Assembly (NCBI RefSeq): GCF_054482595.1
Contig: NZ_CM137008.1
DNA length: 64,000 bases
Strand: one strand, 5' to 3'
Below are positions 47,175 through 57,677 of the stretch, piece by piece. The notes under the pieces were generated by a model. It made no database searches, was not told the DNA's origin, and was given only the letters and a program-made list of their open reading frames with translations. How positions within the stretch are numbered: position 1 is the first letter of the stretch; the number at the start of each line of letters is the position of its first letter. A program made the translations under genes and the position numbers.

Positions 47175-50721
<3,547 letters not shown>

Positions 50722-50750
50722 GCGTTGTGTCCTGACCTGATTCTGGATAT

Positions 50751-51209
50751 TTATTCGATGGGTAAAGAAGTGGTGTATTTAATCTGTTCCATCGCGAAGC
50801 TGGAAGTGACGTCCGACAGCCCCGGCACGCTGTTTACCAGACGCTTATAAAACTCGTCGTAGCGTTTCATGTCGGCAACCTGGACGCGCATCAGATAATC
50901 GTATTCACCAGCCATGCGCCAGAACCCCAGCACTTCTGGCATTTCGGTAACCACCGTGACAAAGCGGCAATACCATTCGCTGCTGTGATGTTGCGTTTTT
51001 ATCAGCACAAAGGCGGTCAGGCCGAGGCCTATTTTTTCCGGATCCAGCAGGGCGACTTTGCCGATAAGGATACCGTCGTCCTCCAGCCGTTTCAGGCGCT
51101 TCCAGCAGGGGGTGGTTGTCAGATTAACGGCTTCAGCCAGTGCCTGCAAAGAGAGGGTGCAATCCTGCTGTAGTAAGGCCAGCAGCTTACGGTCAATTTT
51201 ATCTAACAT
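50751..51209 (-). CDS. decR: Lrp/AsnC-family transcriptional regulator DecR (YbaO)
   Basis: ORF-track start trimmed by 76 codons to [16 protein letters not shown] (152 aa): Lrp-type HTH plus RAM domain. Confidence 0.88.
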
Positions 51210-51361
51210 AGCCCTTCCACAGAGAATTTTTTTCTCTTTTAATTCTATTTTAAAGGTGAAATCGCGACAATTTATTCTGTGCGGTTTAAACACCATGGCA
51301 CAAAATGACAAACTCAACGCAAAAAAAACCGGGCAATTGCCCGGTGCTGGAAGGGATCTCG

Positions 51362-52180
51362 TTATTCGGGGGAATAAGGTAGATGTGGATAGTCCAACCA
51401 GTGCGTCAAATAGTGAGAGACAGCCTGATTTCGGCAATGTCCAATCACCGGTAAATGCGGGAGCTCCGCGCGCAGTTGCGGCATCGCATTGCCCATAATA
51501 AATCCGCTACCGACGCTGCCTAACATTTCGCGATCGTTCATCGCATCACCAAAGGCCATGCAATCGCGCAACGATAAACCTAAATGTTGGGTCAGCACCG
51601 TCAATGCAGCGCCTTTATTGCAGCCCACCGGCAGCACTTCGAGGCAATCCGTGGCGGAAAAACACAAATGTGCACGCTCGCCTAATGCTTCGTATAGCTG
51701 GATCTGCAAGCGTGTAAGATCGTCGTGATCGCCACAGAAGCAGATCTTGGTGACGCTGCCGAGTGGCATTTTTTTGACATCGATTATCTGATAACGAAAA
51801 CCGCTATAGACAAATGCCTGCAACAACGCAGGGATCTCTTTCCCGGTAAACCAACCGTCGTCATTGAAGATATGCATGCTGGCTCGGGTATCCCATTGCT
51901 GATACAGCACCAGCTCCGCGACATCCGCAGGTAAATCATCACGATGTAAAAGTTCACCTTCCAGAGAATGCACGCGCGTTCCGTTGCCGGTAATCAAATA
52001 TGCATCCAGCGATAGCGCCCCGAGAATATGCTGCATCTCCAGCGCATGACGCCCCGTGGCAAAAGTGAGGGTAATGTCGCGTTCACGCAGTCGCGCCAAA
52101 GTAGAGAGGGTTTTCTCACCTAAATGATGGTCAGGCATCAATAAAGTGCCATCCATATCAAATGCTGCCAGACGAGCCAT
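51362..52180 (-). CDS. cof: HAD-superfamily HMP-PP phosphatase Cof
   Basis: Start trimmed to [14 protein letters not shown] (HAD motif I DMDGT); 272 aa. Confidence 0.92.
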
Positions 52181-52279
52181 TTCTTTCTCCACTCTGTGAC
52201 ACGGTTAATGGTGATTGAGTATCACCTGATATATACGGAAGTAATAGTGAATAGTTAAATAATATTGTTCCGGGTTTAT

Positions 52280-53980
52280 ATGCGATTGCTCAACCGTCTT
52301 AACCAGTATCAACGTCTGTGGCAACCTTCAGCCGGAAAGCCGCAAACCGTCACCGTCAGCGAACTGGCCGAACGCTGTTTTTGCAGCGAACGCCATGTTC
52401 GTACGCTGTTGCGTCAGGCACAGGAGGCGGGATGGCTGGAGTGGCAGGCGCAGTCAGGACGCGGAAAGCGCGGACAATTACGCTTTCTGGTCACGCCGGA
52501 ATCGCTACGCAATGCGATGATGGAACAGGCACTGGAAACCGGAAAGCAGCAAGATGTGCTGGAGCTGGCGCAACTGGCCCCAGGTGAGCTGCGCACTCTG
52601 TTACAGCCGTTTATGGGCGGACAATGGCAAAACGATACACCCACGTTGCGTATTCCCTACTATCGCCCGCTCGAACCGCTACAACCAGGCTTTTTGCCCG
52701 GCCGTGCCGAGCAGCATCTCGCCGGGCAGATATTTTCCGGCCTGACCCGCTTCGATAATAATACTCAGCGCCCGATTGGCGATTTAGCGCATCACTGGGA
52801 AACCTCTACTGACGGGTTACGCTGGGACTTTTATCTTCGTTCAACCCTACACTGGCATAACGGCGATGCAGTAAAAGCCTCACACTTACACCAGCGATTA
52901 TTGATGCTGTTACAACTGCCAGCACTGGATCAATTATTTATTAGCGTGAAGCGTATTGAAGTCACCCATCCGCAGTGTCTGACCTTCTTTTTACATCGCC
53001 CCGATTACTGGCTTGCGCACCGGCTGGCGAGCTATTGCAGCCATCTGGCGCATCCGCAATTCCCACTGATCGGCACGGGTCCTTTTCGCTTAACACAATT
53101 CACAGCGGAACTGGTGCGCCTGGAAAGCCATGATTATTACCATTTACGTCATCCACTGCTTAAAGCGGTTGAGTACTGGATAACTCCGCCGCTTTTCGAA
53201 AAAGATTTGGGAACCAGCTGTCGGCATCCCGTGCAAATCACCATCGGCAAACCGGAGGAGCTGCAACGGGTCAGCCAGGTCAGTAGTGGCATCAGTTTAG
53301 GTTTTTGCTATTTAACGTTGCGCAAAAGTCCCCGACTCTCCCTCTGGCAGGCGCGAAAAGTGATCTCCATTATTCATCAATCCGGTTTATTACAAACGTT
53401 AGAAGTAGGAGAAAACCTGATCACCGCCAGTCATGCATTACTGCCAGGCTGGACTATTCCGCAATGGCAAGTACCGGATGAAGTCAAACTACCGAAAACC
53501 TTGACGCTGGTTTATCACCTACCGATAGAACTTCATACCATGGCAGAACGCCTACAGGCGACACTGGCAGCGGAAGGCTGTGAACTTACAATTATTTTTC
53601 ATAACGCAAAAAACTGGGACGACACGACCCTATTGGCACACGCAGACCTCATGATGGGCGACAGATTAATTGGCGAAGCACCGGAATATACTCTGGAGCA
53701 ATGGCTACGTTGCGATCCACTATGGCCACATGTTTTCGACGCTCCAGCATATGCACATCTGCAATCGACGCTGGACGCGGTGCAAGTAATGCCTGATGAG
53801 GAAAACCGATTTAATGCCCTGAAAGCGGTTTTTAGCCAGTTAATGGCAGACGCGACGCTGACGCCGCTGTTCAACTATCACTATCGCATTAGTGCCCCTC
53901 CCGGCGTGAACGGTGTGCGACTGACACCGCGCGGCTGGTTTGAATTTACCGAAGCCTGGCTTCCCGCGCCGTCGCAATGA
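52280..53980 (+). CDS. ybaE: SgrR-like protein: N-terminal HTH plus solute-binding-protein family 5 fold, YbaE
   Basis: Start trimmed to MRLLNRLNQYQRLWQ (566 aa); N-terminal region VTVSELAERCFCSERHVRTLLRQAQEAGWLEWQAQSGRGKRG resembles the SgrR HTH. Confidence 0.82.
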   Translation: MRLLNRLNQYQRLWQPSAGKPQTVTVSELAERCFCSERHVRTLLRQAQEAGWLEWQAQSGRGKRGQLRFLVTPESLRNAMMEQALETGKQQDVLELAQLAPGELRTLLQPFMGGQWQNDTPTLRIPYYRPLEPLQPGFLPGRAEQHLAGQIFSGLTRFDNNTQRPIGDLAHHWETSTDGLRWDFYLRSTLHWHNGDAVKASHLHQRLLMLLQLPALDQLFISVKRIEVTHPQCLTFFLHRPDYWLAHRLASYCSHLAHPQFPLIGTGPFRLTQFTAELVRLESHDYYHLRHPLLKAVEYWITPPLFEKDLGTSCRHPVQITIGKPEELQRVSQVSSGISLGFCYLTLRKSPRLSLWQARKVISIIHQSGLLQTLEVGENLITASHALLPGWTIPQWQVPDEVKLPKTLTLVYHLPIELHTMAERLQATLAAEGCELTIIFHNAKNWDDTTLLAHADLMMGDRLIGEAPEYTLEQWLRCDPLWPHVFDAPAYAHLQSTLDAVQVMPDEENRFNALKAVFSQLMADATLTPLFNYHYRISAPPGVNGVRLTPRGWFEFTEAWLPAPSQ

Positions 53981-54044
53981 ATAGCTGGTCCGGGTTAATC
54001 GCAGGCGTTACCATAACGCTTTTATTGTTCAAGCAGGATTATCT

Positions 54045-54740
54045 ATGAAACGTGCTGTCGTTGTGTTCAGTGGAGGCCAGGATTCCACCACCTGTCTGGT
54101 GCAGGCATTACAACAATATGATGAAGTCCATTGCGTGACGTTCGATTACGGTCAGCGACATCGCGCAGAAATCGACGTGGCACGCGAACTGGCGCTGAAA
54201 CTGGGAGCACGCGCGCATAAGGTTCTTGATGTAACGCTGCTCAACGAGCTGGCGGTCAGCAGCCTGACACGTGACAGCATTCCGGTGCCTGATTATGAAC
54301 CTGAAGCCGATGGCATCCCGAATACGTTTGTCCCAGGGCGTAATATTTTGTTCCTGACGCTGGCGGCAATATATGCGTATCAGGTAAAAGCAGAAGCCGT
54401 AATTACCGGCGTCTGTGAAACGGATTTCTCCGGCTACCCGGATTGCCGCGATGAGTTTGTGAAAGCACTAAACCATGCCGTCAGTTTGGGCATGGCGAAA
54501 GATATTCGTTTTGAAACGCCGCTGATGTGGATTGATAAAGCGGAAACCTGGGCGCTGGCAGATTATTACGGCAAACTGGATTTAGTCCGTAACGAAACGT
54601 TGACCTGCTATAACGGCATTAAAGGCGACGGTTGCGGTCATTGTGCGGCATGTAATTTACGCGCCAACGGTTTGAATCATTATCTGGCCGATAAACCGAC
54701 GGTGATGGCAGCGATGAAGCAGAAAACCGGGTTGAGGTAA
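54045..54740 (+). CDS. queC: 7-cyano-7-deazaguanine synthase QueC
   Basis: 231-aa ORF; PP-loop VVFSGGQDS; C-terminal Cys cluster ([16 protein letters not shown]). Confidence 0.95.
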
Positions 54741-54752
54741 TTATTCCGGGTG

Positions 54753-54781
54753 TCGCCGGATGCGGCTTGAGCATCCGGCAC
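54753..54781. terminator. Hairpin between convergent queC and fadM
   Basis: gccggatgc-ggcttga-gcatccggc inverted repeat in the 51-bp spacer. Confidence 0.6.
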
Positions 54782-54791
54782 CACAAAACGT

Positions 54792-55190
54792 TTACTTAAC
54801 CATCTGCTCCAGCTTTTCGCGCAATTCCCCTTCCAGAGCTAATGCTTTCTGCGTTTTAAGATCAATACAAACAAACGTAATAAGCGCATCCGCTACCACC
54901 TGCCCTTCCGGCTCCAGTGTAATGACCTGGCTTAAGATGCCGCTTTTACCGTTTAATTGCTGCAACTGACTGGTAATAGTTAACAGGTCGCTTAATACCG
55001 CTGGGCGACGATAGTTAATATTGATATTGACCACGACGAAGGCGATGTTATGGGCCGTCATCCACTGAAAACTGTCGCTATTTTCCAACCCATCCCAGCG
55101 GGCTTCTTCGAGAAATTCAAGGTAGCGGGCGTTGTTGACGTGCTGGTAAACGTCGAGATGATATCCACGAACTTTGATTTGTGTTTGCAT
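54792..55190 (-). CDS. fadM: Long-chain acyl-CoA thioesterase III (hot-dog fold) FadM/YbaW
   Basis: 132-aa ORF; 4HBT-type thioesterase (YHLDVYQHVNNARYLEF). Confidence 0.9.
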   Translation of the reverse strand: MQTQIKVRGYHLDVYQHVNNARYLEFLEEARWDGLENSDSFQWMTAHNIAFVVVNININYRRPAVLSDLLTITSQLQQLNGKSGILSQVITLEPEGQVVADALITFVCIDLKTQKALALEGELREKLEQMVK

Positions 55191-55231
55191 AGCGCAATAA
55201 CCTTACGTTGTTGTTATAAGTACAGAGGTCA

Positions 55232-57677
<2,446 letters not shown>

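Follow-up and report, generated by a model that had tools for sequence, protein, structure and literature searches.

A conserved wide dyad between cof and ybaE as a predicted operator of YbaE, an SgrR-family regulator of Escherichia coli

Introduction

Which genes does YbaE of Escherichia coli control, and from which site on the DNA? The ybaE coding sequence lies on the plus strand at positions 52280-53980 of a 64,000-nucleotide stretch of contig NZ_CM137008.1 (NCBI RefSeq assembly GCF_054482595.1), hereafter called the window, and its open reading frame translates into 566 amino acids followed by a stop codon at 53978-53980. By nucleotide comparison, the region is 100% identical to the annotated ybaE of E. 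coli genomes, and the gene is found in 5424 of 5426 complete E. coli genomes. It belongs to the E. coli "y-ome," the conserved genes without an assigned function. Comparative analysis leads us to propose that YbaE binds a wide dyad in the intergenic region between ybaE and its divergent neighbor cof, activates cof, and represses itself, a reading that we consider probable, although far from secure.

The gene and its assignment to the SgrR family are already public knowledge. RefSeq labels the product "SgrR family transcriptional regulator," the K-12 gene b0445 is listed as "uncharacterized protein YbaE," and YbaE is in this respect an ordinary one-component regulator of a known family. Horler and Vanderpool (2009; PMC2760817) placed YbaE in "Clade 2" of the SgrR homologs, with unknown function, and proposed in general terms that the genes divergent from sgrR homologs are targets. 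Other mentions of ybaE in the literature are incidental: the gene is induced when carbon is limiting and in one biofilm regime, and it was a match in a peptide-resistance screen. SgrR itself (b0069), which activates sgrS in glucose-phosphate stress, also activates setA and alaC (PMC4021124), and, as cited in PMC13060122, it represses itself. In turn, the small RNA (sRNA) SgrS induces the Cof-type HAD phosphatase YigL, by which sugar-phosphate stress is relieved (PMC4021124).

The gene order in the window is mdlA, decR, and cof on the minus strand, ybaE and queC on the plus strand, and fadM, ybaV, and ppiD on the minus strand. The predicted target, cof (51362-52180, minus strand), encodes a hydroxymethylpyrimidine pyrophosphate (HMP-PP) phosphatase of the Cof-type HAD-IIB group, as assigned by the NCBIfam equivalog NF011705 (556 bits against a cutoff of 336); its next-best model is YigL, at 222 bits. 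The original prediction, made from the sequence alone, had named cof as the gene divergent from ybaE across 99 bp, and the intergenic region (52181-52279) is indeed exactly 99 bp long and identical to that of K-12. We know of no regulator of cof.

Results

The original prediction read YbaE as a cytoplasmic ligand-sensing transcription factor, with an SgrR-type helix-turn-helix in its N-terminal 70 residues followed by a family-5 solute-binding fold and no signal peptide. Searches with profile hidden Markov models found both domains. The SgrR_N winged-helix DNA-binding domain (Pfam PF12793) covers residues 7-119 (52298-52636, plus strand) with an E value of 3e-39 and a score of 134 bits against a cutoff of 24, and SBP_bac_5 (PF00496) covers residues 165-303 only, with an E value of 6e-17. 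We modeled the protein with AlphaFold2 from a 72-sequence alignment, which gave a predicted local distance difference test (pLDDT) score of 89 and a predicted template modeling (pTM) score of 0.84, as compared with a pLDDT of 40 for a single-sequence prediction. The model has a winged helix at approximately residues 22-69 (three successive helices and then a beta-hairpin), three linker helices, and a complete family-5 fold at approximately residues 113-566 (52616-53977, plus strand), which is the presumed ligand sensor. The winged helix itself is thus within the first 70 residues, as predicted, but the SgrR_N domain goes on to residue 119. Foldseek comparison with the PDB matched the model to NikA, DppA, SatA, CntA, MppA, and a sialic-acid binding protein with E values down to 4e-28; against solved binding proteins, the target-normalized TM-score is 0.67-0.71 over approximately 500-530 alignment columns at approximately 15% identity. 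Neither Foldseek nor a sequence search of the PDB returned a solved structure from the SgrR family.

We found no hydrophobic segment at the N terminus of YbaE. Over the first 60 residues, the 15-residue Kyte-Doolittle mean peaks at 0.25, and the maximal 19-residue mean anywhere in the protein is 1.12, with no segment resembling a membrane span. Since the N terminus is hydrophilic and is occupied by a DNA-binding domain, and since hydropathy, the sole measure used here, gives no membrane-spanning segment, YbaE appears to be cytoplasmic and to have no signal peptide. These findings bear on an older annotation, repeated in recent papers, under which YbaE is the periplasmic substrate-binding protein of an ATP-binding cassette (ABC) transporter. 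The family-5 fold and some database names agree with that annotation, but a periplasmic protein would not be expected to lack a hydrophobic N-terminal segment or to begin with 119 residues of winged-helix DNA-binding domain, and no permease or ATPase genes adjoin ybaE in approximately 80 loci, where its neighbors are cof and queC. The mdlAB genes, 1.5 kb away beyond decR, form a separate exporter operon. We regard a transporter role as extremely improbable, and the "periplasmic" label found in some papers and older annotations is very likely wrong. The architecture instead supports a cytoplasmic one-component ligand-sensing transcription factor of the SgrR family, which is the best reading of YbaE and agrees with its public annotation.

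YbaE is a paralog of SgrR and not its ortholog. It is 28% identical to E. coli SgrR, its score of 230.8 bits does not reach the cutoff of 476 of the SgrR equivalog NF010149, and the true sgrR lies elsewhere in E. coli. Nevertheless, the parts of the two proteins that would contact DNA are alike, both carrying CSxRHxRTLL and GRGKR motifs. In YbaE these are the recognition helix CSERHVRTLL (residues 35-44) and the wing GRGKRG (residues 60-65). G60 and R61 do not vary across the family alignment, and C35, R38, W52, W55, and G62 are at least 90% conserved, so that recognition-helix and wing residues rank among the most conserved positions of the whole SgrR family. The start of the protein is likewise conserved: the N terminus MRLLNRLNQYQRL is kept from residue 1 on in orthologs and paralogs, and for this reason we prefer the ATG at 52280 to an upstream TTG at 52265. 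Among the protein matches (P0023/P0002), a 444-residue form of YbaE without the N-terminal DNA-binding domain stands for 305 E. coli sequences; miscalled start codons, or disruption of the 5' end of the gene in some strains, could account for it. One 818-residue YbaE-QueC fusion reading frame, seen in one assembly, is probably a sequencing or stop-codon artifact.

A search of 1.84 billion representative proteins yielded 2089 relatives of YbaE at E <= 0.001, among which only a small YbaE-like subfamily is nearer to YbaE than to SgrR. Three family members from Vibrionaceae (Thaumasiovibrio, Grimontia, and Aliivibrio) score nearer to SgrR. Searching metagenomes with the subfamily alignment recovered only close copies from E. 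coli, Citrobacter, and Enterobacter. When one genome was scanned for each species, 80 loci with 66-96% identity to YbaE were obtained in Enterobacteriaceae. The order cof (divergent)-ybaE-queC is kept in all 79 informative loci, defined as those with enough flanking or upstream sequence, of which 78 are from Enterobacteriaceae and one is a 46%-identical ortholog in a 3.5-Mb genome (locus L002); most of these loci have 93-127 bp between cof and ybaE. Outside Escherichia, YbaE (66-82% identity) and Cof (67-82%) evolve at similar rates across Enterobacteriaceae and diverge much faster than QueC (88-95%) and DecR (85-97%) (loci L006-L085). More distant YbaE-like paralogs (30-38% identity) have neighbors unrelated to these. 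They lie divergent from a pair of GFO/IDH/MocA oxidoreductase genes, downstream of a phosphotransferase system (PTS) EIICB gene, divergent from a TetR-family gene, or in tandem pairs beside fimbrial genes. One such tandem pair (locus L088, 4001-5677 and 6131-7795) and a single copy (locus L090) lie beside genes for a fimbrial usher, a chaperone, and a GerE-type regulator, a hint that adhesins, and not metabolism, are under the control of some members of the family.

Conservation in the cof-ybaE intergenic region was determined from an alignment of 72 distinct sequences representing approximately 70 Enterobacteriaceae species. Four blocks are conserved: AGTAT (52218-52222), TG (52227-52228), ATATACGGAAGTAATAGTGAAT (52231-52252), and TTGTTCCGGGTT (52265-52277). 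Almost all of their positions are at least 90% conserved and most are at least 97% conserved, as is AGTAT throughout. The cof-proximal 35 nucleotides of the region are mostly unconserved and serve as an internal control. Because neutral sites are saturated at 66-80% protein identity, the blocks must be under selection. Within them lies an imperfect wide dyad, CGGAAGTAAT (52236-52245)...ATTGTTCCG (52264-52272), whose GGAA (52237-52240) and TTCC (52268-52271) cores are 27 nucleotides apart. The cof-proximal half-site, CGGAAGTAAT, falls in the near-invariant block at 52231-52252. The cof-distal half-site, ATTGTTCCGGGTTT (52264-52277), is near-invariant from 52265 to 52277, mostly at 97% or more, and its end and its TTCC core lie only 2 and 8 nucleotides, respectively, before the ybaE ATG.

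The intergenic region had been put forward as the place to look for a dyad operator, and the outcome depends on which dyad is meant. The only compact perfect inverted repeat, GGTGATTGAGTATCACC (52210-52226; 6-bp arms, 5-nucleotide spacer), spans the cof transcription start and -10 element, but its arms are unconserved outside Escherichia and we rejected it as an operator of the family; it may serve as a regulatory site particular to this lineage, or fold into a hairpin where the cof mRNA begins. The wide GGAA/TTCC dyad, in contrast, is conserved. No second copy of it was found within the 64-kb window.

A conserved leader of this kind might also act as RNA, for instance if CGGAAGUAAU...AUUGUUCCG paired into a riboswitch-like hairpin within the leader of ybaE. 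The arms could form 5 plus 4 base pairs with one bulge, within the predicted ybaE 5' untranslated region (UTR). Several observations argue otherwise. No Rfam family matches positions 50500-55500 at E <= 1, the sequence folds no better than shuffled sequences (z = -0.43; 68 of 200 shuffles were equally or more stable), and in the 46%- and 38%-identical relatives the right arm has a C-to-A change that breaks a pair and is not compensated; the arms are otherwise invariant, so that there is no covariation to count. We consider a cis-acting RNA highly improbable, and the Rfam and folding results led us to reject also the thiamine pyrophosphate (TPP) and preQ1 riboswitches that the neighboring genes might bring to mind. 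The suggestion that a divergent sRNA or small reading frame might be present, as in sgrR-sgrS, was not borne out: besides the lack of an Rfam match, the only small reading frames in the intergenic region are mechanical ones of 20 and 39 amino acids that are unconserved, and the divergent transcript is the cof mRNA.

Transcription start sites (TSSs) for cof, queC, and sgrR were taken from the SMRT-Cappable-seq operon table of PMC6131387 (Supplementary Data 2), which lists none for ybaE. The cof TSS maps to 52210 (minus strand; K-12 467382, with the coordinate mapping checked), 69 nucleotides from the ybaE ATG. The conserved AGTAT is explained as part of the cof -10 element, predicted to be GATACT (52218-52223, minus strand; -13 to -8), since its spacing from the mapped TSS is appropriate and the -10 element of sgrS aligns with it. 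For ybaE, the candidate promoter is TGaTATATA (52227-52235, plus strand), which resembles an extended -10 element, aligns with TTAATATAG just upstream of the sgrR TSS (K-12 77339, giving a 40-nucleotide 5' UTR), and comprises conserved TG (52227-52228) and ATATAC (52231-52236) sequences; it would place the ybaE start near 52239-52243, as predicted from the sequence. A sigma-70 consensus scan of the intergenic region yielded no promoter at the threshold used, indicating that the promoters of this region are non-consensus.

We compared the cof promoter with that of sgrS, using the annotated K-12 position 77367 as the sgrS +1. The two control regions align from the -10 element of the target to the start codon of the regulator. 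The distal core, CGGAA at cof and GGGAA at sgrS, occupies -62 to -58 in both, and the proximal core is TTCCG at -30 to -26 at cof and TTCCC at -29 to -25 at sgrS. The -10 elements are GATACT at -13 to -8 and ATAATT at -12 to -7, respectively, and the regulator ATG is at -70 in the cof promoter and at -68 in the sgrS promoter. Neither promoter has a good -35 element, as expected of activator-dependent promoters. The shared layout suggests that the ybaE-cof and sgrR-sgrS control regions are probably homologous. Sequences from -70 to -35 of the sgrS promoter are reportedly required, according to a 2007 study of the SgrR site.

If the dyad is the site of the regulator, it should follow the regulator gene rather than cof, and this is what we observed. 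A GGAA...TTC(C/A) dyad sits upstream of family members unconnected with cof, ending 6-10 nucleotides before the ATG. The 38% paralog, beside the GFO/IDH/MocA genes, has ACGGAAT...CTGTTCAGGTTTTT, ending 6 nucleotides before the ATG, and also keeps CAGTAT; the 36% paralog has the perfect repeat ACAGGAACA-N22-TGTTCCTGT; and the 35% paralog has CCGGCAAT...ATTTCCGGTTTTAT together with extra CCGGAA half-sites. Upstream of a 48% SgrR-like gene, the dyad is AGGAAAT-N24-ATTTCCT, and its TTCC core ends 6 nucleotides before the ATG. The pattern GGAA-N24-30-TTC[CA] is present in 6 of 10 upstream regions, where 0.405 would be expected, and none of 2000 dinucleotide-preserving shuffles reached 6, a statistic that is optimistic because the pattern was defined post hoc. 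Among four loci fetched later, two (Grimontia and the Aeromonas SgrR) carry it, each time ending 6-7 nucleotides before the ATG. The Chromobacterium locus has a degenerate version. The conserved CSxRHxR helix and GRGKR wing fit a GGAA core that is shared across the family with flanking bases that are specific to each subfamily.

These comparisons also bear on a reading in which YbaE is a transcription factor whose real targets lie elsewhere, the conserved blocks being only two overlapping promoters or the site of another regulator and cof a mere conserved neighbor. The conserved sequence coincides in part with the -10-like ATACT of cof and TGnTATATA of ybaE, cof is expressed in standard media, and the SgrR-like DsvR of Vibrio has control over remote genes, among them zapC and genes of sugar uptake (PMC13060122). 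Yet promoter elements leave the invariant GGAAGTAATAGTGAAT and TTGTTCCGGGTT unexplained, the same dyad lies just before the ATG of paralogs with unrelated neighbors, and the cof promoter matches the SgrR-dependent sgrS promoter in position nearly base for base. We judge this reading unlikely, though it deserves to be taken seriously, and we continue to favor a YbaE operator.

The other neighbor, queC, follows ybaE on the same strand in every locus examined, with a gap of approximately 65-75 bp in most, and ybaE might accordingly be thought to regulate queC or to be cotranscribed with it, acting on the synthesis of queuosine precursors. Several features of the locus tell against this. A promoter of its own starts queC at a mapped TSS downstream of ybaE (54020, plus strand; K-12 465572; PMC6131387), ybaE is followed at 54003-54021 by a hairpin resembling a terminator, the sequence ahead of queC contains no operator-like dyad, and paralogs keep the dyad without queC nearby. 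The sole look-alike of the operator, ATTATTCCGGGTGT (54740-54753), is at the queC stop codon; it differs from the distal half-site by two mismatches and is at chance level, since 12 of 100 shuffles gave at least 2 matches. Regulation of queC by YbaE is, in our estimation, quite improbable. The hairpin consists of AGGCGTTACCATAACGCTT followed by a T-rich tail, and because the queC TSS falls at its 3' edge, the ybaE terminator and the queC promoter appear to overlap.

Two further observations concern cof and its other flank. The mechanical cof reading frame extends to a GTG at 52192 (reading MEKEM...), and the mapped TSS at 52210 permits either start; a Shine-Dalgarno-like GGAGAAAG (52184-52191) favors the annotated ATG at 52180. 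Most genera other than Escherichia, among them Enterobacter, Klebsiella, Citrobacter, and Salmonella, have a gene of approximately 348 codons between decR and cof, divergent from decR (for example, locus L026, 1993-3039); its product scores 571 bits against the model of the L-cysteine desulfhydrase Cds1, just below the 600-bit cutoff. Escherichia does not have this gene, and decR adjoins cof in the window (gap 51210-51361).

Discussion

The original prediction had found neither target nor ligand evident from the sequence. Comparative analysis now points to cof and ybaE itself as the predicted targets. In the mechanism that we propose, the N-terminal winged helix of YbaE would read the DNA and the family-5 fold would sense a ligand. 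YbaE would bind the 37-bp wide dyad CGGAAGTAAT/ATTGTTCCG, probably as a dimer, the cores being about three helical turns apart. Its site, at -62 to -26, overlaps the -35 position, and from there YbaE would activate the cof promoter, a weak one with a GATACT -10 element and no good -35 element. Because the same site covers the predicted ybaE start and 5' UTR, it would also repress the ybaE promoter, so that a single site would serve both activation of cof and self-repression, as with SgrR at sgrS and sgrR. Binding of YbaE to the dyad, the direction of regulation, and the ybaE promoter are the steps that we infer.

A number of points weigh against this mechanism. The arms of the dyad are imperfect, the left arm GGAAGTAAT differing from the reverse complement of the right arm, GGAACAAT, and in the relatives with 46% and 38% identity TTCA takes the place of TTCC as the right core. 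The pattern is missing from 4 of the first 10 loci and from 2 of the 4 fetched later. The Aliivibrio homolog (locus L175, approximately 1930-1975) is without a wide dyad and has the perfect TAAGTTCA-N13-TGAACTTA, a GTTCA/TGAAC repeat, instead. Two overlapping promoters could by themselves account for some of the conservation, with no need of an operator. Moreover, cof is transcribed in ordinary media, so that activation by YbaE may be unnecessary or only modulatory. At the SgrR-dependent alaC promoter, there is a GAGTTCCTCATTT half-site (approximately -76 to -64) for which we found no cleanly spaced partner. The equation of the dyad with the SgrR footprint depends on the -70 to -35 requirement that the 2007 study reportedly established. 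Finally, the searchable literature contains no functional study of ybaE and no binding, reporter, or knockout evidence. As a separate observation, the Aliivibrio repeat uses the same GTTC/GAAC core in the opposite orientation and at closer spacing.

Among known systems, SgrR is the closest parallel. It shares the architecture of an SgrR_N domain followed by a family-5 domain (551 amino acids, compared with 566 for YbaE), the recognition-helix and wing motifs are conserved, and the divergent control region is laid out almost base for base alike. The outputs are related as well, in that SgrS induces the Cof-type HAD phosphatase YigL while YbaE faces cof. The two systems differ in that sgrR is divergent from the sRNA gene sgrS and the small reading frame sgrT, whereas ybaE is divergent from a protein-coding phosphatase gene, and in the flanks of the half-sites, which are ACGGAAGT / TGTTCCGG at ybaE and AGGGAAAA / AGTTCCCC at sgrR.

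At the zapC promoter, DsvR (Vca0578), an SgrR-like protein of Vibrio cholerae, requires an 11-bp box whose exact sequence recurs immediately upstream of the DsvR start codon (2026 preprint; PMC13060122), an independent experimental result in favor of a site that goes with the regulator gene. Like YbaE, DsvR belongs to the SgrR family and has no sgrS, and its box lies just before its own start codon, a position like that of the distal half-site of YbaE. Unlike YbaE, DsvR is found in another genomic context and has a broad regulon that includes cell division, sugar uptake, and pili. It shows that members of the family have diverged to new targets (PMC13060122).

The C-terminal approximately 450 residues of YbaE have the same fold as NikA, DppA, OppA, and the Haemophilus ducreyi sialic-acid binding protein, which are family-5, cluster C proteins. 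YbaE differs from these periplasmic proteins in that it lacks a signal peptide, carries an additional DNA-binding domain at its N terminus, and has no genes for a transporter in its vicinity. The regulators of the LacI/GalR and LysR families follow the same design, in which a DNA-binding domain is fused to a solute-binding fold that senses small molecules. Their binding-protein fold is of another class, that of family 5 being much larger, and they differ from YbaE also in the DNA-binding domain and in operator geometry.

What YbaE might sense is a matter for speculation. By analogy with the chain from SgrR through SgrS to YigL, and given that YigL is the second-best model for Cof, YbaE may sense the build-up of a phosphorylated metabolite that Cof dephosphorylates. 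Speculative candidates are HMP-PP or a toxic analog of it, a sugar phosphate, or a vitamin phosphate. The 2004 screen that named Cof an HMP-PP phosphatase reportedly linked it to resistance to a toxic pyrimidine analog, which is what makes compounds resembling HMP-PP a candidate, though a speculative one.

A broader proposal, which we put forward only tentatively and hold to be possible rather than likely, is that ybaE-cof and sgrR-sgrS are duplicates of one ancestral cassette consisting of a regulator, an operator, and a divergent promoter. One copy would drive a Cof-type phosphatase gene directly, while the other would drive an sRNA that induces, among other things, the paralogous YigL. YbaE would then be a second and hitherto unrecognized sensor of phosphorylated-metabolite stress in enterobacteria, responding, for example, to HMP-PP or toxic pyrimidine analogs, and GGAA-N27-TTCC would be an operator used throughout the family. 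Both SgrR-family genes of E. coli adjoin thiamine-related genes, sgrR lying by thiBPQ and the TPP-riboswitch RNA sroA (locus L086, K-12 74500-79000) and ybaE by cof; this neighborhood may be a coincidence or the trace of a shared ancestral one.

What the comparison adds is a specific prediction of operator, target, and promoter geometry, together with the shared layout of the sgrR-sgrS and ybaE-cof control regions. If the link between YbaE, the operator, and cof is true, a core enterobacterial gene would gain a target, and the "periplasmic binding protein" label still used in recent screens would be corrected. The cof promoter, used as a reporter, would offer a direct route to the ligand, and the SgrR family would gain an operator model that can be reused for its other members. 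Should the two control regions also prove to be copies of one ancestral cassette, this would give a concrete view of how the promoter of sgrS is related to the promoter of a protein-coding gene.

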